NCBI GenBank assembly: GCA_036667875.1
Contig: JAVWTD010000001.1
Location: 5,767 to 69,766 of the forward strand
DNA: 64,000 nt
Source: Bacilli bacterium
GTDB lineage: Bacteria > Bacillota_I > Bacilli_A > RF39 > UBA660
Direction of reading: 5' to 3'
The notes beneath the pieces were generated by a model that saw nothing but the letters and a program-made list of their open reading frames with translations, made no database searches and was not told the DNA's origin. The translations under genes were made by a program, and so were the position numbers. Positions 3,920 through 26,968 of the stretch are shown here, piece after piece; within the stretch, counting starts at the first letter, position 1; every line of letters begins with the position of its first letter.

Positions 3920-3950
3920 CATCTTAGACGTTTTCACTATCATCTTAGAC
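3920..3950 (+). promoter_or_regulatory. pair of 10-bp direct repeats CATCTTAGAC with 21-bp periodicity, ~45-70 bp upstream of agrB; candidate LytTR response-regulator binding site
   Basis: CATCTTAGAC at 3920-3929 and 3941-3950, separated by 11 bp. A TATAAAT-like -10 follows near 3983. The geometry matches the known AgrA/ComE/PlnC direct-repeat sites (two repeats, centres two helical turns apart). Confidence 0.45.
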
Positions 3951-3992
3951 ATAACCTATTTATTTTTTTTCTAAAAATGATATCATATAAAT

Positions 3993-4595
3993 ATGAGAGA
4001 AAAAGTTATTGAAAAATATGTTTCATTTCTTCTTAAGTATCATACTTATAGTAGAAAAGAAATACTTACAATCCGATATGGAGTAGAAAATACTTTATTA
4101 TTTTTAGAAAAGATTATTATTATTTTAGTAATAGGATATTTATTAGGAATTTTAAAGATAATGTGTATTTTCATGTTATTTTATATGGGAATTAAGACTT
4201 TCTCTGGTGGGATGCATGCAAGCAGCAGCTTTAGTTGTCTCTTAATTTCTTTAGTTATATTTATTGCATCCCCTATCATTGGAGTACATGTATATTTTAC
4301 ATTATTAGAAAAATTTTTGATATCGTTATTCGTTTTTGCTATATTTCTAATATACAGTCCTGCAGATACTCATAAAAAACCAATTAGAGGTCCTAAAATT
4401 AAAATGCTAAAGATCAAGTCTCTTATAATTATTGATCTTTATTGCATATCTAGTTTTTTCGTTACGAATTATATTGGCAATCTATTAATTATAAGTTTGT
4501 TGGTTCAAGCTTGTATGATATCGCCAATTCCATATAAATTATTTGGATTGCCATATAATAATGGAAGGAGAGAAAAAGATGAAAATTTTAGCTGA
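3993..4595 (+). CDS. agrB: AgrB-family accessory gene regulator protein B (AIP precursor processing peptidase, membrane)
   Basis: 200-aa polytopic membrane protein. The KTFSGGMHASS region resembles the AgrB catalytic His/Cys segment. Its 3' end overlaps a small AgrD-like ORF. Confidence 0.7.
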   Translation: MREKVIEKYVSFLLKYHTYSRKEILTIRYGVENTLLFLEKIIIILVIGYLLGILKIMCIFMLFYMGIKTFSGGMHASSSFSCLLISLVIFIASPIIGVHVYFTLLEKFLISLFVFAIFLIYSPADTHKKPIRGPKIKMLKIKSLIIIDLYCISSFFVTNYIGNLLIISLLVQACMISPIPYKLFGLPYNNGRREKDENFS

Positions 4596-4698
4596 CCTTT
4601 TAGGAAAAATAACTCTATCTTTTGGAACATTAGGTGTTACTTATACTTCATGGTTTGTGTTTGATGAAGCTGAATGTCCAGAAGAAATTAATAACTAA
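4579..4698 (+). CDS. agrD: AgrD-like autoinducing peptide precursor (39 aa), absent from the ORF track
   Basis: GGAAGGAG RBS at 4564-4571, ATG at 4579. Translation: MKILADLLGKITLSFGTLGVTYTSWFVFDEAECPEEINN. It has an amphipathic leader, a hydrophobic core YTSWFVF, and an acidic Pro-containing tail DEAECPEE like the staphylococcal DEVEVPKEL tail. A Ser lies five residues before the acidic tail. Confidence 0.6.
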   Translation: MKILADLLGKITLSFGTLGVTYTSWFVFDEAECPEEINN

Positions 4699-4802
4699 GG
4701 AAATTTAAAAAGTTGCTTATCTTGCAAAAAAAAATTGATGATTGGAATTTTAATTCTTTTCATCAGTTTTTTTATATATAATACTTGTATTAAAAAGAAT
4801 TG

Positions 4803-6149
4803 CTATTTTGTAGTAATTCTTTCTTTTTTAGGATATTTATTATTTTTTTTGTAAATTAATGTAAGTTTAATAACATTACCATATATTTTCCTATTGAGTG
4901 TGTATTGAGGATTCTTTTTTAATAATTCATTTACAATTGTAAGTCCATGTCCTCTACCTTCACCATTTGTAGAATAGCCATCTTGAGTCATTTTTTCTAA
5001 ATCAATTTTTCCTTTAAAGGTATTTGATATTGCAATAATAAAATTTTTGTTTTCTAGGTAGGCTTCTATTCCTAAGTATGGTGCTCTATCTAATTTTTGT
5101 TTTTCTAATTCTTGCATTGCATTATCTACAAGAATATTGAATATTTGAGTAATTTTTGCTCCTTCTGTATCATCGATGTATTCATCAGGTAACTTTCTTA
5201 AATCATCATCTATTTTATAAATTACAAATATATTTTTTCTATGTGCTTCAACTATTTTATTATATATTGCGGATTTTAAACTAAGACAATCTATTTTATA
5301 TGCTTCAAATTTAATATTTTCATCATCTTTTATTTTTTTCTTTTTTTCAAAAGAGTTACCAACTAAATCAATGTAATTTTTAACTTTTTGTTCATTAGTC
5401 ATTGCTCTTATTGTACAAAGAATATTATTGTTTTCATGATTTTTTAATCTGTAATCATCAACCATTTTACAAGCATCTTTTTGTGATATTTTCATCATTT
5501 TTGTATCTTCTTTTAATTCACATTTTTCTTGCTCACTTTTATAAAGATACCCTGCTACCATAAACATTGATAAAAAAGATATAATAGTAAGAAATACATT
5601 AAATAAAATACTATCATGAATAAAGTTTGTTATCAAAAGATATGAAAATATAATTAAAAATGTATAAAGAATAAATAATAATGTTTTACTATTAAATCTT
5701 ATAAATTTCTCTGATAAGAAGTCATAACAAATTTTAAGAAATTTAGTTTTAGACAAAATTAATATTGAAATTAAGAAGACAATGTTAAAGACATCAAGAC
5801 TGTAAGATGCCATAAATTCTACGGTTGTCTTATAACCAAATATAAAAATTATTGATATTGAAGTTAAAAGTTCTATACCGGCTATAAAACAATCTATAAA
5901 GATTATTGAAAAGACTATTTCTTTATTACTTTTTTCATATATTGATTTTATTGCTAAATACATTGCTCCAGTTGTCAAAAAAAATGCAAAATCAGTTATA
6001 TTTACAAAGTATTTTATTGAAGGAACAATTAACATTATTAATGATCCTAATGTAAGTTTAATTAGTTTAGGTTTTTGGTCAAAGAATTCTCCTATTATTA
6101 GAAGTATAATTATATTTCCTATTAAAGTTATTATTGTTGAGAATGGCAT
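4803..6149 (-). CDS. agrC: AgrC-like sensor histidine kinase (polytopic N-terminal sensor, GHKL ATPase C-terminal, HPK10 type)
   Basis: 448 aa. The N-terminal ~200 aa carry 5-6 TM helices. The C-terminus has NGEGRGHGLTIVNELL, a G-box-like ATP-lid. It sits directly upstream of, and overlaps, the LytTR regulator gene. Confidence 0.7.
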   Translation of the reverse strand: MPFSTIITLIGNIIILLIIGEFFDQKPKLIKLTLGSLIMLIVPSIKYFVNITDFAFFLTTGAMYLAIKSIYEKSNKEIVFSIIFIDCFIAGIELLTSISIIFIFGYKTTVEFMASYSLDVFNIVFLISILILSKTKFLKICYDFLSEKFIRFNSKTLLFILYTFLIIFSYLLITNFIHDSILFNVFLTIISFLSMFMVAGYLYKSEQEKCELKEDTKMMKISQKDACKMVDDYRLKNHENNNILCTIRAMTNEQKVKNYIDLVGNSFEKKKKIKDDENIKFEAYKIDCLSLKSAIYNKIVEAHRKNIFVIYKIDDDLRKLPDEYIDDTEGAKITQIFNILVDNAMQELEKQKLDRAPYLGIEAYLENKNFIIAISNTFKGKIDLEKMTQDGYSTNGEGRGHGLTIVNELLKKNPQYTLNRKIYGNVIKLTLIYKKNNKYPKKERITTK

Positions 6150-6853
6150 AATATATCTAACTCCTTTTTATATTTTAATGATAATAGATCTACTTCTAAT
6201 CCTGTATCAAATTTTATACTTTTCTTTTTCTTATTGATAGCTACAATTCTTTTTAAATTAACAAAACCAGATTTGTGAGTTTGAACAAAATTTTCATCAA
6301 AATATCTTCTAACTTCAATTAATGTTTTGCTTATCTCATAAGTTCCATTATCTGTAACTATTTCTGTTTTTCTACTAACATTTTCTCTTGAAATATATAA
6401 AACACTTTGTTGTCTAAAATAATAATTTGTTGATTTAGTAATTATTTCTACTACATCGTTTTTTATATCATTTTTTATTATATAATTTAATACATTTTCT
6501 AATCTATTTTTTGTATCTTTATTCTTTGTTATAAAAGATGTGATAAATAAATCTAAAGTCAATATTTCTTCTGCTGATTTTTCGTGACTGGTTAACATAA
6601 TAATATGACTTTTTAAGTCACGACTTCTTATCTTTCTTGCTGCTTCAATTCCGCTGCCTGTTGGTGTTTCAATATCTAAAATATATATTTTGTTTTTATT
6701 ATTTAAATAAGTTGCATCGTAAAACACTTGATTATAGTCATTGAATTTAGAAATCTTATATTCTATTTTTTCTTTCAATAAATAATCGTCTATTACTTCA
6801 ATAACTTTATCAACATATATATCATTATCATCGCAAATAATAATTTCAAGCAT
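6131..6853 (-). CDS. agrA: LytTR-family response regulator (AgrA/ComE-like)
   Basis: MLEIIICDDNDIYVDKV... is a receiver domain with DD and K residues. The C-terminal ~100 aa (FRQQSVLYISRENVSRKTEIVT...FVQTHKSGFVNL) is typical LytTR. Confidence 0.8.
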   Translation of the reverse strand: MLEIIICDDNDIYVDKVIEVIDDYLLKEKIEYKISKFNDYNQVFYDATYLNNKNKIYILDIETPTGSGIEAARKIRSRDLKSHIIMLTSHEKSAEEILTLDLFITSFITKNKDTKNRLENVLNYIIKNDIKNDVVEIITKSTNYYFRQQSVLYISRENVSRKTEIVTDNGTYEISKTLIEVRRYFDENFVQTHKSGFVNLKRIVAINKKKKSIKFDTGLEVDLLSLKYKKELDILCHSQQ

Positions 6854-7112: not shown

Positions 7113-7763
7113 TTATTTCCATCCTTCATACCAATTTTTAATTTTAGTTTTTCCATTATCAATTATTTCTTTGCTTTTTTCTTTTATTTCATTTCCTTTT
7201 TCTTTTACTTCATCAACGGTTTCTTTATATTTATCTTCTCCTACTTTTTCTATAACTTTTTCTTCTAAAAATTCTTTGGTAGACTTTATTTTTTCTTCTA
7301 CATAGATTAACACTTTTCCTGTTTTATCTTTTGTAGTTTCTTTATAATCTGGAATTTTCTTTTCAATTTTTGAATCAATACTGCTAGTTATATTTAAAAT
7401 TTTAGTTTTTGTTGTTTCATTTAATTCGTCAAAAGTAATCCCTTTTATTTCTCCGTTGTAAAATAAGAAGTCAACCAGGTTCACAAATATCTCTTTAGAA
7501 CCTTCTTTAAGTTTATCGAAACTATTGTTTTCCAAAATTTCATTTACTTCACTTTCTTTTTCTTCGAAGTAGTTTATAACATATTCATCCTTATTTTTGA
7601 TTTCTTCTGATTTATCTACATAATCTGTTATTTCAATAATATCATTTTTTGGTTCATTGTTTTCAATTTCTTTTTTATTTGTACAACCTGTTGTTACTAG
7701 AACAAAGCCTGTTAATATTACAAAAACAATTTTTTTTACATTAACATTTTTCATATTAGTCAC
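7113..7763 (-). CDS. lipoprotein, Lys/Glu-rich, function unknown
   Basis: Signal peptide with lipobox LVTTGC. Highly charged repetitive mature region. Confidence 0.5.
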   Translation of the reverse strand: MTNMKNVNVKKIVFVILTGFVLVTTGCTNKKEIENNEPKNDIIEITDYVDKSEEIKNKDEYVINYFEEKESEVNEILENNSFDKLKEGSKEIFVNLVDFLFYNGEIKGITFDELNETTKTKILNITSSIDSKIEKKIPDYKETTKDKTGKVLIYVEEKIKSTKEFLEEKVIEKVGEDKYKETVDEVKEKGNEIKEKSKEIIDNGKTKIKNWYEGWK

Positions 7764-7781
7764 CTCAGTGATATTGTACTA

Positions 7782-8084
7782 CTAATCATCATTTTTTACA
7801 ATAATATCTTTTATTTCATTTATCATAATTTTTTCATTTTCCATTGTTAGTAAATAATCTTTTGTTTTAGCTATTATTTTTTTGTTTATTACTTTATTTT
7901 CTAATTGAATTTCAACATCCATTTTATAAATATACTTTGACGATTTAAATATTTCTGCTATTTTCTTTTGTATAGATATAGGATTTTCTTTTGATGGTTT
8001 AGGATTTTCACCATAAACATATTTTTTGTTATTCATATTATTTTTAATTACAGTATTTTGAAATACTTTTGGAAGTTTTTTCAT
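7782..8084 (-). CDS. hypothetical protein (100 aa)
   Basis: ORF lies between the SGNH hydrolase and lipoprotein genes with an 18-bp spacing, so it is probably co-transcribed. No motif recognised. Confidence 0.35.
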   Translation of the reverse strand: MKKLPKVFQNTVIKNNMNNKKYVYGENPKPSKENPISIQKKIAEIFKSSKYIYKMDVEIQLENKVINKKIIAKTKDYLLTMENEKIMINEIKDIIVKNDD

Positions 8085-8130: not shown

Positions 8131-9354
8131 CTATTTTTGATACATATGTGTTTGAAAATATTCCATTGCTTTTTTATTACCAGTTTCTGACAAATGAACA
8201 CCTGATTCGTTTGATGCTTCTCTATAATATCCTTTTTTTAATTGTCCATTTTCATCTTTTAAAATTCTTGAAGTATTTAAGAAAGGTATTTTCATTTCAC
8301 TACATAATTTTAACAAATAATAATTCATTTTATTTATTTTTTGATTATTTAATTGCTTTCCTTCACTGTCAAACCTAGAAGCGACTGGAAAAATAGATTG
8401 GACTATAATAACTCCTTCTGGATTTTTTTCTTTCATAGATTTTAATAATTCTTGAAATTTTGTTATAAAATAGTCTATTTCCATTGCTGCAACGCTGTTT
8501 GTTCCTAGACTTAGCAGTAAATATTTTGGTTTTTTTTCTTCATAAGCATCAATCAAAGTTTTTTTTGAATCTATATGATTAATATAAATTGTATTATTGA
8601 ATATTGTTTCTAAATTAACTCCCTCTCTATGCCATAATTGTTTACCGGTTATGTTTTTATTCATGACATAGTATAAAGCAGTTGAATCTCCTGCAAAGAT
8701 AAATTTATTACTATATTCTTCTTTACCATTTTTTGTTTCTTGCAATTGTATATCCTTATAATAAGAATCTAAACTAAATTCTTTTAAATTCATTGTTAAT
8801 GGTGAAGATTTTGTAACTTCTACTTTTCTTTTTTCAATAGCCCTATTACCATTTGAATCGGTTACACTATATTTTATTGTATAGATTCCTTCTTTTTTTG
8901 TATCAACAGTTCCCTCAGTGATGACTTTATCTTTTAAATTACCATCATAATTATCGATAGCGGCATATCCTGGATCATTAAATTTTTCATTAATAATGAC
9001 TACTATACTATTTCCTTCTTTTAATGTAATAATAGGTTTGGATAGGTCTTTCACTTCAATTTTTAAATTTCTTTGATATGTTCTGTTTTTATGTTTATAT
9101 TTAAAATTAATTTTATAAGTACCTAATTCTTTATTATTTATATTACTTTTAATTTTAATGTTACTTTGAATTCTTTTTCCATTAAATGTTGCTGTGTATT
9201 GATCTTTAAATTTTTCATTTAAATCAATAGACTTTGTTTTTAAAACAACTTTAAAAGGATAACTTTGAATATAAAACAATGTATAACCCACTATTACCAA
9301 AGTAATTAATAACAATGCAAAATTTTTTTTCTTTAATTTCTTTTTCTTTACCAT
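8131..9354 (-). CDS. membrane-anchored SGNH/GDSL-family hydrolase with an Ig-like (DUF5011-type) domain
   Basis: N-terminal TM. The central PIITLKEGN...DPGYAAIDNYDGN...YTIKYSVTDSNGN is DUF5011-like Ig. The C-terminus has FAGDST (block I), LSLGTNS (block II) and SGVHLSETG (block V-like). Confidence 0.6.
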   Translation of the reverse strand: MVKKKKLKKKNFALLLITLVIVGYTLFYIQSYPFKVVLKTKSIDLNEKFKDQYTATFNGKRIQSNIKIKSNINNKELGTYKINFKYKHKNRTYQRNLKIEVKDLSKPIITLKEGNSIVVIINEKFNDPGYAAIDNYDGNLKDKVITEGTVDTKKEGIYTIKYSVTDSNGNRAIEKRKVEVTKSSPLTMNLKEFSLDSYYKDIQLQETKNGKEEYSNKFIFAGDSTALYYVMNKNITGKQLWHREGVNLETIFNNTIYINHIDSKKTLIDAYEEKKPKYLLLSLGTNSVAAMEIDYFITKFQELLKSMKEKNPEGVIIVQSIFPVASRFDSEGKQLNNQKINKMNYYLLKLCSEMKIPFLNTSRILKDENGQLKKGYYREASNESGVHLSETGNKKAMEYFQTHMYQK

Positions 9355-9387: not shown

Positions 9388-10167
9388 TCATAATTTTCTT
9401 GTAATAGTATATCCGATTAGTAATAATGCTAAACCTAAAGATATATTTAAAAAATTATAAGGATGACTAAGTGTTTCTTTTAAAATAATAAGGCTAGTGG
9501 ATATTGATAAACCAAAAATTGTATAATATGATTCATATTTAAACTTGTTAAGTACATAATATATTAATTTTGCAAACATAATTACACCAATTATAATACC
9601 AAGGATAAAAAACAGAAATAAAGGAAATTCAAATGTTGAAACTATTTTTAATAATTTTTTATAAATACCTAATGATGAAAAGATTGCAAATCCACTTATT
9701 CCTGGTATTATTGTTGTTAAAGCTTCTATAATTCCTACAATAATAATTGAAAATAGATTTAACTCGATATTAAAATGAAATTTAATTGTACTTAGGAATA
9801 ATAATACTGTAATAGGAAATAATAAAAATAGTATATTTTTTAAGTTTTTCTCTTCTTTGGTAATTTTGTAGATACTAGGTAAACCTCCAAGAATTAAACC
9901 AATAAATAAAAACATTGTTTGAATATAATACTTATTTAATAAAGAGTACATGAACTTGCTTAAAAACATTATAGAAATAACTAGTCCAATTAAAAATTGA
10001 AATAAAAATTTTGCATCATTTTTTTTAATTTTAAGTGGGTTTCCAATAATAAATAGTAATCTATCATATATGTTTAATGAAATAGCTATTAAACTCCCGC
10101 TTACTCCTGGAATTATTTTTCCAGTTCCTACTAAAAGACCTTTAAGAATATTTTTCAAGACCATCAC
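9388..10167 (-). CDS. polytopic membrane protein, possibly DUF368 (PopT-like polyprenyl-phosphate transporter) family
   Basis: 259 aa with ~8 TM helices and two repeated G-x-SG motifs (IPGVSGSLIAISL, IPGISGFAIFSSL) reminiscent of the duplicated GxSRSG motif of DUF368. The assignment is tentative. Confidence 0.35.
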   Translation of the reverse strand: MMVLKNILKGLLVGTGKIIPGVSGSLIAISLNIYDRLLFIIGNPLKIKKNDAKFLFQFLIGLVISIMFLSKFMYSLLNKYYIQTMFLFIGLILGGLPSIYKITKEEKNLKNILFLLFPITVLLFLSTIKFHFNIELNLFSIIIVGIIEALTTIIPGISGFAIFSSLGIYKKLLKIVSTFEFPLFLFFILGIIIGVIMFAKLIYYVLNKFKYESYYTIFGLSISTSLIILKETLSHPYNFLNISLGLALLLIGYTITRKL

Positions 10168-10280: not shown

Positions 10281-12086
10281 ATGGAACAAAAAGAAATAGT
10301 CGATAGTAACGATTCAACTACAAATCAAAATATAACTGAACCTAATCTAAGTAATGATAAAAAAAATGAGACAGATTTATCTGTTCAGCCACTTAATATT
10401 GATAATACTGTGGAAAACTTGTCATTAGACGAAAATAATCAAGAAAAAGATAATGAGTTGATTATGGATGCTGTGGAAAAAACTAATGTGGATGATAATG
10501 AAAATAGTTTTACTGTGGAAAACAATAATGTAGATGATGAAAAAAATACTTTTACTGTGGAAAACAATAATGTAGATAATGGAAAAAAGAAAAAAATGTT
10601 ATTTGTTCTTTTAATTATTGCTTTTCTTTTAATCTTTATTTTTGCGGGATATAAGGTTAATGAATTTGTTCAAAAGAAAAAAACGGAAAATAAAAAACCT
10701 CCAATTATAATTGATAAAGATGATGATAAAGACAAAGAAGATAATGATAAGTTTGTACCAGAAGTAGTTTCAAATATTGATGTCATTTCTGTTTCTAGTG
10801 CTATTAATGAAGGCGTTTTGGCTGATGATTATTATTTTTCAGACTCTGTTTTTATAGGGGATAATACTATTTCAAAATTTAATAGTTATCTTTCAACTAA
10901 ACCTAATGGATTTTTAGGGAAACCATTTATCTTATATGATTCAAAGTTAAGTACTAATACTTTAGTTTCAGAAGTTAATGAAAAGTCTAATCATCCAGTT
11001 TATAATGGCACTAAAATGCTTGTTGAAGATAGTGTCAAGTTAATGGGAGCGAAGAAAGTATTTATTAATTTAGGGCATAATGATATTTTAAGTTCTGGTA
11101 TTAATAATACATTATCAAATTATAAAACTCTAATTAGTAGGATAAAAACAAAGAATCCTAATACAAAAATTTTTATTATTAATGTTGGTTATATGTTTAA
11201 AGGAACAGAGACAAAAAAAATGAATAATACTTTAATAAGAGAATTAAATGAAAAACTAAAAAACAGTTCTGCTACATGGGGTGCAATTTATATAGATATG
11301 GCTCATACAATGATAGAAAGTAATGGTTATTTAAAAGAAGAATTTTATTCTGAAGAGTCTTTACTTATTAATAATCTTGGTTATAATGTATGGGTAAATG
11401 TTCTTAGAAGAATTGCTTCTACTCAGATTGAAGCTGAAATTTTAAGCACTGCTTCATCTTTATTAAAAGCTTGTGAAACTAGTCCTTCGTATGATGCATA
11501 TAACAAGGCAGTAAAGGCTGTTGATAGAGTTCCTGAAGGAATTGCTAAAGTAGACTTTAAAAACCGTTTAATCAAGGTCTTAGCGGTTATTGAAGCTAAT
11601 TATAGTAATAAACTTACTGAAATTAAAATAAACAATGTAGCAATCGCTCTTACTAGTGGTAACTATAATTATTCTTACAATGTTCCAAATGATGCTTCAA
11701 CTGTTAATATATCAGTTAAAAAAATAAGTAATAACGCAATTGTTGAAGGTGAGGGGAATGTTAATTTAAATTTAGGAGAAAATATTTTAAAAATCATCGT
11801 AAAAAATAATGGTGAGATTATTACATATACTTTGAAAATATATAGAGCCTATGATGATAGTATTTTAAAAGTTACTATTGATAATAAGGATATAGGTTTA
11901 GATACTTTATCTTTAACTGTTCCAGCACAAGTTTCTAGTGTAATTTTAAAAGTAACTCCAACTTATTCTGGGGCAACAGTAACAGGGGAAGGTACTTTGA
12001 GTTTGGTAACCGGTACTAATACCTTCAAATTCAAAGTTTATGAAAAGATTTATACTTTAACAATTATTAGAGAGGTTAGTTCTTAA
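10281..12086 (+). CDS. membrane-anchored SGNH-like protein with an Asn/Asp-rich N-terminal region and C-terminal beta-rich repeats; catalytic Ser apparently replaced (GDN)
   Basis: AGAGGTG RBS. Has N-terminal TVENNNVD repeats, a single TM (LFVLLIIAFLLIFIFAGY), FIGDNTIS (block I with N in place of S), NLGHNDI (block III) and DMAHT (block V). The C-terminal 200 aa show repeated Ig-like segments. Confidence 0.5.
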   Translation: MEQKEIVDSNDSTTNQNITEPNLSNDKKNETDLSVQPLNIDNTVENLSLDENNQEKDNELIMDAVEKTNVDDNENSFTVENNNVDDEKNTFTVENNNVDNGKKKKMLFVLLIIAFLLIFIFAGYKVNEFVQKKKTENKKPPIIIDKDDDKDKEDNDKFVPEVVSNIDVISVSSAINEGVLADDYYFSDSVFIGDNTISKFNSYLSTKPNGFLGKPFILYDSKLSTNTLVSEVNEKSNHPVYNGTKMLVEDSVKLMGAKKVFINLGHNDILSSGINNTLSNYKTLISRIKTKNPNTKIFIINVGYMFKGTETKKMNNTLIRELNEKLKNSSATWGAIYIDMAHTMIESNGYLKEEFYSEESLLINNLGYNVWVNVLRRIASTQIEAEILSTASSLLKACETSPSYDAYNKAVKAVDRVPEGIAKVDFKNRLIKVLAVIEANYSNKLTEIKINNVAIALTSGNYNYSYNVPNDASTVNISVKKISNNAIVEGEGNVNLNLGENILKIIVKNNGEIITYTLKIYRAYDDSILKVTIDNKDIGLDTLSLTVPAQVSSVILKVTPTYSGATVTGEGTLSLVTGTNTFKFKVYEKIYTLTIIREVSS

Positions 12087-15844: not shown

Positions 15845-15990
15845 ATCAAAAAAAACTCTTAAGAAAGAGTTTTACGTACCTTTATAAATACTTCTTTCTT
15901 ATCGTTATTAGCTGTACCACCTTGCTTATTGCAGGTTGGTGTGAGATCTTAGAGCTAATTCTCTCCCTCACTCTTGATAAAAGTTATATC
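15845..15990 (-). promoter_or_regulatory. SAM-I (S-box) riboswitch with intrinsic terminator in the metK leader
   Basis: Reverse strand reads CUUUUAUCAAGAGUGAGGGAGAG..GCUCU..CACACCAACCUGCAAUAAGCAAGGUGGUACAGCUAAUAACGAUAAGAAAG, matching the S-box consensus UUAUCAAGAG.GG.GGAGGGA...CAACC...GGUGCUAA...GAUAAG. It is followed by AAAACUCUUUCUUAAGAGUUUUUUUU. Confidence 0.8.
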
Positions 15991-26738: not shown

Positions 26739-26815
26739 TGGGGCGACTAAAGGGAATCGAACCCTTGAGTAACGGAACCACAATCCGCCGTGTTAACCAC
26801 TTCACCATAATCGCC
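26739..26815 (-). tRNA. tRNA-His (anticodon GTG) with genome-encoded G-1 and CCA
   Basis: Reverse strand: G-GCGATTA...anticodon loop TTGTGGT...TAGTCGC-C-CCA. G-1 pairs with C73, T-loop GGTTCGATTCC. Confidence 0.85.
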
Positions 26816-26883: not shown

Positions 26884-26968
26884 TGGTACCGGTAGTCGGA
26901 CTTGAACCGACACGGGCAAAACCCACTTGATTTTGAGTCAAGCATGACTACCATTCCATCATACCGGC
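26884..26968 (-). tRNA. tRNA-Leu (anticodon CAA), class II long variable arm, encoded CCA
   Basis: Reverse strand: GCCGGTATGATGGAATGGTAGTCATG-CTTGA-CTCAAAA-TCAAG-variable arm GTGGGTTTTGCCCGTGT-CGGTTCAAGTCCGAC-TACCGGTACCA. Confidence 0.85.

Follow-up and report, generated by a model that had tools for sequence, protein, structure and literature searches.

Which residue closes the ring of an agr-type autoinducer peptide (AIP) when the core of its precursor has no cysteine? This question is raised by the window, as we call the whole stretch of 64,000 nucleotides analysed here, which harbors a complete agr-type locus consisting of AgrB, AgrD, a convergent AgrC-like kinase and a LytTR regulator. 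It is a chromosomal agr-type quorum-sensing locus of an uncultured low-GC Bacilli bacterium. The core of its AgrD is devoid of Cys and has two hydroxyl residues side by side, Thr23 at the position for a 6-residue ring and Ser24 at the position for a 5-residue ring. A preliminary description of this DNA had named Ser24 as the ring-forming residue.

Organization of the agr-type locus

The features of the locus are as follows.

3920-3950, + strand: perfect 10-bp direct repeat, CATCTTAGAC-N11-CATCTTAGAC, period 21 bp, located 43 nt ahead of the agrB start
3993-4595, + strand: agrB, 200 aa, integral-membrane cysteine-peptidase-like AgrD-processing enzyme (PF04647, E 6.5e-29)
4563-4570, + strand: Shine-Dalgarno-like GGAAGGAG for agrD, 8 nt ahead of the ATG, within the last agrB codons
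4579-4698, + strand: agrD, encoding the 39-aa pro-peptide MKILADLLGKITLSFGTLGVTYTSWFVFDEAECPEEINN, as read and translated from the window
4728-4773, no strand assigned: hairpin between an A-tract and a U-tract (dG -20.2 kcal/mol, z -3.5, 0 of 200 shuffles folding as well)
4803-6149, - strand: AgrC-like sensor histidine kinase, 448 aa (PF14501 HATPase_c_5 at 2.9e-09)
6131-6853, - strand: AgrA-like response regulator with receiver and LytTR DNA-binding domains (PF00072 at 1.4e-09, PF04397 at 2.2e-10)

The 3′ end of agrB shares 17 nt with the start of agrD, both being on the + strand. Thus, the ribosome-binding site and ATG that had been placed inside the 3′ end of agrB are indeed there, and the AgrD layout proposed for the product of this downstream gene, an amphipathic leader, a hydrophobic core and an acidic D-E-x-E-x-P tail, is supported. 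Similarity to the AgrD family is found with the NCBIfam model TIGR04223 (quorum_AgrD, “AgrD family cyclic lactone autoinducer peptide”), against which the peptide scores 26.6 bits for a cut-off of 19 (E 4.8e-06). The Pfam model PF05931, whose use had been suggested and which is built on staphylococcal sequences, gives 14 bits, below its gathering score of 22.7. The peptide had been taken as unlisted and liable to be missed by default annotation; however, GenBank already lists exactly this sequence for several MAGs (MEG0021322.1 and others) under the title “MAG: cyclic lactone autoinducer peptide [Bacilli bacterium]”.

An identical or near-identical peptide is carried as a called gene by 21 contigs, on each of which agrB and the kinase gene flank it, and an AgrD-like ORF of 34–40 aa occupies the equivalent position in related genomes, the query of the homologue search being the 51-aa upstream-extended agrD ORF. 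Since the TIGR04223 score, the constant context on the 21 contigs and the ORFs at the same position in relatives come together, the ORF is not a chance one, and it is almost certainly the true agrD of a working agr locus. A phmmer search of the 39-aa peptide against 1.84 billion representatives returned only itself at E ≤ 0.001, and a search of PDB sequences gave a single chance match to a thyroid hormone receptor (E 0.67).

The surrounding genes form a conserved slot, SecA-HPF-CSD-AgrB-AgrD-HK-RR, in the window and in related genomes. The kinase has a hydrophobic, multi-pass N-terminal half, with segments within residues 1–203 by crude hydropathy, and a GHKL ATPase domain. The top NCBIfam match of the regulator is quorum_RR_AgrA, but its score is far under the equivalog cut-off. 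Between the convergent agrBD and kinase/regulator genes, the hairpin at 4728-4773 is likely a bidirectional intrinsic terminator.

LytTR operators consist of two repeats in a 21-bp architecture. The repeat upstream of agrB, with one match against none in 100 shuffles, is accordingly a candidate binding site of the LytTR regulator, that is, an autoinduction operator. The strict 21-bp-period search upstream of agrB in orthologous loci detected such a repeat in the same species only, and by eye a degenerate copy, CATTTTAGAC-N11-CATTTTATGC, is seen at the same place with the same period in locus L025, the closest relative.

Register of the ring position in the AgrD family

The pro-peptide is divided into a leader (residues about 1–20), a core (21–28) and a tail (29–39), and the parts that matter for the ring are the following.

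4645-4662, + strand: predicted macrocycle T23-S24-W25-F26-V27-F28, beginning at the family ring position, 11 residues before the conserved Pro (Thr23 codon at 4645-4647, Ser24 codon at 4648-4650)
4663-4695, + strand: C-terminal recognition tail DEAECPEEINN, predicted to be removed by AgrB, with the family-conserved Cys33 (4675-4677) and Pro34

To locate the ring position in the family, a profile was made from AgrDs adjoining AgrB relatives. It yielded 856 peptides, of which the best 120 were tabulated together with P0002, a one-residue cluster variant of the window peptide. Among these 121 tabulated peptides, 118 read ...G-S-x-A-C-x5-D-E-P-E-C-P-x-S-L-I-K, where two Cys precede the conserved Pro, one in the core at a distance of 11 residues and one immediately adjacent to it. 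Almost every one of the 121 has the DEPECP tail, and the core Cys, found in about 97% of the tabulated family, is absent from the window peptide. Syntenic orthologues show the same spacing of 11 residues between the core Cys and Pro, for example L008 (..SSG-C-FLAFV-DEPECP) and L010 (..SQA-C-FACLF-DEPECP).

In an alignment (A4) that includes S. aureus AgrD, D29, E30, E32 and P34 are invariant and the ring-Cys column of the own family falls on Thr23 of the window peptide, while window Ser24 aligns with S. aureus Cys28. The register put forward for Ser24 therefore stands with regard to S. aureus and fails with regard to the peptide's own family, where Cys is located one residue earlier.

Cys28 is the ring nucleophile of S. 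aureus AgrD (PMC4979651). In C. thermocellum, an LC-MS/MS-confirmed lactone is formed through Ser25, 10 residues before the conserved Pro35, and the ring ends at Phe29 (PMC5322536). With the cleavage site transferred from these two organisms, the rings of the present family would have six residues, a size documented in some clostridial AIPs (PMC12312760). The 5-residue ring S-W-F-V-F of the preliminary description is thus probably wrong, as judged from the 118 of 121 tabulated peptides and the syntenic orthologues.

Cys33, the only Cys of the peptide, was considered as a ring former and rejected: it corresponds to the family-wide tail Cys, which 118 of the 121 tabulated peptides have in addition to a core Cys. 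Its earlier assignment to the removed tail is consistent with this, Cys33 being the conserved residue of DEPECP. Because Cys33 is no ring candidate and the tail Cys is conserved in the family, an O-ester product is the best reading, and the oxygen-ester (lactone) product already suggested for this peptide appears the most likely outcome from a core without Cys.

Closest relative and the cysteine-free class

The closest relative, P0184, was found by a profile weighted to cysteine-free peptides. It is the AgrD of locus L025 (MKFFADLVGDLALLIGKAGVTYTPWFLFDEAECPEEINK), about 67–68% identical to the window AgrD, and its core and tail read GVTY-T-PWFLF-DEAECPEEINK. Thr23 is conserved through a synonymous change (ACT in the window, ACA in L025), whereas the codon of Ser24, TCA in the window, is CCA in L025 and encodes Pro. 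The claim that Ser24 is the nucleophile meets a difficulty here, as this relative has Pro at the site and keeps Thr23. Thr21 is also kept in L025, but not throughout the cysteine-free set. L025 has the same layout as the window locus with agrB intact, and GGAAGGAG likewise precedes its agrD. The agrB of L025 is left uncalled in its source annotation. Identities between the window and L025 are 68% for AgrD, 48% for AgrB, 42% for the regulator and 29% for the kinase.

Including the window peptide, 11 cysteine-free sequences were found without conditioning on the ring position (P0001, P0184, P0092, P0181, P0186, P0204, P0194, P0195, P0203, P0180, and P0197). All 11 have Thr (nine) or Ser (two) 11 residues before Pro, a ratio of 7 to 2 when counted as 90%-identity clusters. 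Furthermore, within a 90% cluster the ring residues vary (VMFVF, VMFVL, VHFIL) while Thr is constant.

More sequences came from a metagenome pattern scan, in which Ser or Thr was required at the ring position. It gave at least 120 matches, and most of those listed are chance hits to unrelated ORFs. At least eight genuine AgrDs are among the matches listed, and six were added to the cysteine-free set; these six count for recurrence only, since the pattern demanded Ser or Thr there. L030 (..GSKA-T-YIYIF-DEPECP) and L097 (..GSKA-T-IVFIF-DEPECP) provide clean Cys-to-Thr contexts, and L112 (..TPY-T-PWLFW-DEPECP) has Pro after Thr, as in L025. Ser or Thr one residue later is a property of the window peptide only, being seen in none of the other 16 cysteine-free relatives (10 unbiased and 6 from metagenomes).

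Altogether, at least five sequence groups include Thr-type peptides, which are found on tens of contigs and in several deep lineages, and their loci keep the kinase, the regulator and an intact AgrB with the invariant His and Cys. A change from Cys (TGY) to Thr (ACN) takes two substitutions, via Ser. Given these two steps, the finding of Thr more often than Ser hints at selection for Thr, perhaps through a greater stability of its ester.

AgrB of the Thr-type loci

The window AgrB, named “accessory gene regulator B family protein” in GenBank, is an isolated sequence: the protein search gave best matches of about 42% identity, its relatives are 34–48% identical with a maximum of 48%, and a search of PDB sequences gave no match. 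Across 20 AgrBs of the clade, of all types, G73, H75, C82, P123, D125, T126 and P130 are invariant. Among these, His75 and Cys82 are the putative catalytic residues, which we take to correspond to H77 and C84 of S. aureus AgrB.

No position of the alignment of the 20 AgrBs separates Thr-type from Cys-type enzymes in a column scan. One candidate signature of the Thr type, loss of the Trp two residues before the catalytic Cys, was rejected because the AgrBs P0131, P0158 and P0171, which also lack this Trp, pair with Cys-type AgrDs. A neighbor-joining tree groups the nine Cys-type AgrBs in a single clade, outside which the Thr-types lie on deep branches; with highly divergent sequences and uneven sampling, this topology is not robust, and it is compatible with single as well as multiple origin.

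Proposed product and alternative explanations

On balance, the best explanation is that agrD encodes a lactone closed between Thr23 and Phe28, with the ring T-S-W-F-V-F. The parts of this explanation differ in strength: the analysis establishes which genes are present, how the locus is arranged, how it is conserved and where the ring position falls, whereas the cleavage site, the ester, the choice of hydroxyl and autoinduction are predictions. The ring is very probably closed through oxygen and not through Cys33, and, given an ester, Thr23 is the probable nucleophile in preference to Ser24. By analogy with S. aureus and C. thermocellum, from which the site is transferred, we infer cleavage between Phe28 and Asp29.

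AgrB, through His75 and Cys82, would cut at Phe28/Asp29, release DEAECPEEINN and hold Phe28 as an acyl-enzyme thioester. As the core has no cysteine, this thioester would be resolved by a side-chain hydroxyl to give an O-ester (lactone). The hydroxyl of Thr23 is predicted to be the most likely acceptor of the Phe28 acyl group, since Thr23 sits at the ring-Cys position of its own family, and the product would be the 6-residue T-S-W-F-V-F. The leader would be trimmed by some peptidase. The secreted peptide would then be sensed by the kinase, and the LytTR regulator would probably activate agrBD via the CATCTTAGAC repeats.

The alternative with the most in its favor, although rather unlikely, is that Ser24 is the nucleophile and closes a lactone ring of five residues, S-W-F-V-F, to which an exocyclic tail, for instance (T)YT-, is attached, as in the S. 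pseudintermedius AIP or the C. thermocellum pentapeptide. Calculated [M+H]+ values are 768.3715 for the tail-free ring TSWFVF, 931.4349 for Y-TSWFVF, 1032.4825 for TY-TSWFVF and 667.3238 for a bare SWFVF ring, which could arise only with Ser24 as the nucleophile; products that include both Thr23 and Ser24 have equal masses under the two models. Ser24 is a chemically precedented candidate because its spacing to the conserved Pro, 10 residues, is that of the staphylococcal Cys28, with which it aligns, and of Ser25 in the Ser25–Phe29 lactone of C. thermocellum (PMC5322536). Among oxygen-linked AIPs, only serine lactones are proven (PMC12312760; PMC8251862), and neither an AgrB-made threonine ester nor a threonine-linked AIP was found in the open-access literature searched, which gave Cys- and Ser-linked AIPs only. 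The secondary hydroxyl of threonine is also a poorer nucleophile than that of serine, which counts against Thr23. Moreover, the register of the window AgrB could have shifted, since this enzyme is divergent and at most 48% identical to any relative. Against Ser24 stand the Pro that replaces it in the intact locus of the closest relative, the lack of Ser or Thr at that site in all 16 other cysteine-free relatives, and the family Cys one residue earlier.

It is improbable that no stable ester is formed at all, the acyl-AgrB being hydrolysed to a linear peptide, or the product becoming a head-to-tail lactam. For the latter, the leader would be cut directly before Thr23, and the free amine could turn the ester into the lactam by an O-to-N acyl shift, as in clostridial cAIPs. 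Such a route has a parallel in tail-free thiolactone AIPs, which rearrange to homodetic cyclopeptides, in a study that left the serine-lactone case open (PMC8251862). In most Cys-type relatives a small residue, Ala or Gly, precedes the ring Cys (..SxA-C), which would fit a cut before the nucleophile; however, the residue before Thr23 is Tyr22, which is not small, and a cut there is not suggested in the window peptide. The lactam route requires the Thr ester as an intermediate, and thus it extends the Thr23 lactone model and does not replace it. With a linear product, there would be no reason for one position to be so strictly Thr or Ser.

Finally, it is highly improbable that agrD is decayed and non-signalling, with the peptide inactivated by loss of the ring Cys and the ORF kept only by linkage. 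In favor of decay, the core Cys of nearly the whole tabulated family is missing and phmmer gives no significant match to the peptide other than itself. Against it, 21 contigs carry the peptide together with an intact agrB, kinase and regulator, AgrD has diverged less from its L025 counterpart than AgrB, regulator or kinase have, and the Thr-type class occurs in several deep lineages with an intact locus each time.

Comparison with known AIP systems

The nearest known group is the DEPECP-tail AgrD family of uncultured Bacilli, members of which are named “cyclic lactone autoinducer peptide” in GenBank. The window peptide shares with it the genomic slot between SecA-HPF-CSD and HK-RR, a length of about 39 aa, the style of the leader, the D-E-x-E-C-P tail with its Cys, and the hydrophobic 5-residue stretch before the tail. 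It differs in that the ring Cys is replaced by Thr and the tail end xSLIK by EEINN.

Compared with S. aureus AgrD and its product AIP-I, a thiolactone with a 5-residue ring, the precursor layout and the D-E-x-E-x-P tail are common, and the His...Cys dyad of AgrB has the same spacing. In contrast, the window peptide has no core Cys, probably forms a 6-residue ring and falls below the gathering score of PF05931; agrCA are co-transcribed in S. aureus, whereas the kinase and regulator genes of the window are convergent with agrBD.

Published serine lactone AIPs come from S. pseudintermedius, E. faecalis (GBAP) and C. thermocellum (PMC12312760; PMC5322536; PMC8251862). Lactone AIPs are thus less confined to S. 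intermedius-group staphylococci than had been supposed, as both GBAP and the pentapeptide of C. thermocellum belong to the serine lactones (PMC12312760; PMC5322536). In the AIPs of S. (pseud)intermedius, GBAP and the pentapeptide from C. thermocellum Clo1313_2818, an oxygen ester takes the place of the thioester, as predicted here. They use Ser, while the comparison of the window peptide with its relatives points to Thr one residue earlier. The Ser of C. thermocellum lies 10 residues before the conserved Pro, like window Ser24 (PMC5322536; PMC12312760), but its agrD has no adjacent agrB, agrC or agrA, unlike the complete locus of the window. GBAP has a 9-residue ring against the six residues predicted here.

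In ring size, the predicted product resembles the clostridial six-residue-ring AIPs and cAIPs, such as Rc-AIP1 of Ruminiclostridium cellulolyticum, which are six-residue macrocycles including tail-free forms (PMC12312760; PMC8251862). The clostridial cAIPs start from a Cys thiolactone, while the window product would start from a Thr ester, and a possible O-to-N shift in the latter would be analogous to the S-to-N shift of thiolactones (PMC8251862).

Implications

The kind of gene and its annotation are already known; the threonine nucleophile and the recurrence of a Thr-type class would be new. AIP chemistry as now described comprises Cys thiolactones, rarely Ser lactones, and lactams that arise from tail-free thiolactones. 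In a recent study of AIPs across the microbiome, Cys or Ser is taken as the nucleophile (PMC11953309), and pipelines that seek these residues would mis-assign the ring in the present case. If the serine model is right, the locus would add another lactone AIP in an uncultured Bacilli lineage, which is useful but ordinary.

Tentatively, AgrB-type enzymes in this clade of uncultured low-GC Bacilli may close the macrocycle with a threonine side chain as the nucleophile and make an unrecognised AIP chemotype, 6-residue threonine lactones or cyclic hexapeptides derived from them by acyl shift. Such a threonine-linked class, if true, would be a fourth AIP chemistry and would widen the substrate scope of AgrB, with a bearing on the structure prediction and synthesis of AIPs from microbiomes.

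Divergence of the sensor kinase

The AgrC-like kinase of the window (4803-6149) could be aligned over its full length with that of L025, the agr locus of the closest AgrD relative, at 29% identity, while only the C-terminal half was alignable with the kinases of the more distant orthologous loci L008 and L021, at 27-28% over about 250 aa. Judged from these alignments, the sensor half is the fastest-diverging part of the kinase. In this the kinase resembles staphylococcal agr with its hypervariable specificity groups.

Organization and annotation of the loci

No recognizable Shine-Dalgarno sequence for agrB was found in the region read (window 3960-3995), the ATG at 3993 being immediately preceded by TATCATATAAAT. 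The agrB mRNA may be leaderless, or the real start may lie elsewhere; the corresponding start in L025 is GTG. Beyond the LytTR regulator, and further along the window, the following features are found.

Genes beyond the regulator and RNA elements in the window
7113-8084, (-): two same-strand ORFs, 215 aa and 99 aa long, immediately downstream of the regulator
8131-9354, (-): GDSL-type lipase/acylhydrolase protein
9388-10167: VCA0040-like (undecaprenyl-phosphate translocase-like) gene, between the two GDSL-type genes
10281-12086, (+): GDSL-type lipase/acylhydrolase protein
15896-15983, (-): SAM riboswitch (S-box leader, RF00162), 56.5 bits, gathering score 44.4
26742-26814, (-): tRNA gene (Rfam)
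26887-26968, (-): tRNA gene (Rfam)

The 215-aa and 99-aa ORFs may share a transcript with the kinase and regulator genes. A Pfam search of these two ORFs gave no matches, and similar-sized genes without a Pfam match also follow the regulator in the related loci L013-L018, L021 and L025. One of the two GDSL-type proteins carries bacterial surface Ig-like domains.

Among the related loci, agrB is uncalled in L014 and the kinase in L023, both being otherwise identical to their neighbors; a frameshift, an assembly variant or a mere index gap may underlie these cases. The agrBD locus L001 (contig CAYJEO010000011.1; agrD at 4584-4706) encodes a Ser-type AgrD entirely devoid of Cys (..GSEA-S-LVVIF-DEEETPKSLIK). 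Its MAG is labeled "uncultured Muribaculaceae" (Bacteroidota), and the contig is probably mis-binned. A masked run (X in translation) lies just upstream of L001 agrB.

Possible leader cleavage site in Cys-type relatives

Ala or Gly almost invariably precedes the ring Cys of the Cys-type relatives (..G-S-x-A / C), as tallied for P0005-P0123 among the best 120 of 856 profile matches. On sequence, this arrangement looks like a signal-peptidase-type site, and cleavage there, before the ring Cys, would make the Cys-type products tail-free thiolactones. Such thiolactones, if made, would tend to rearrange by an S-to-N shift to cyclic hexapeptides, as has been described for clostridial cAIPs.
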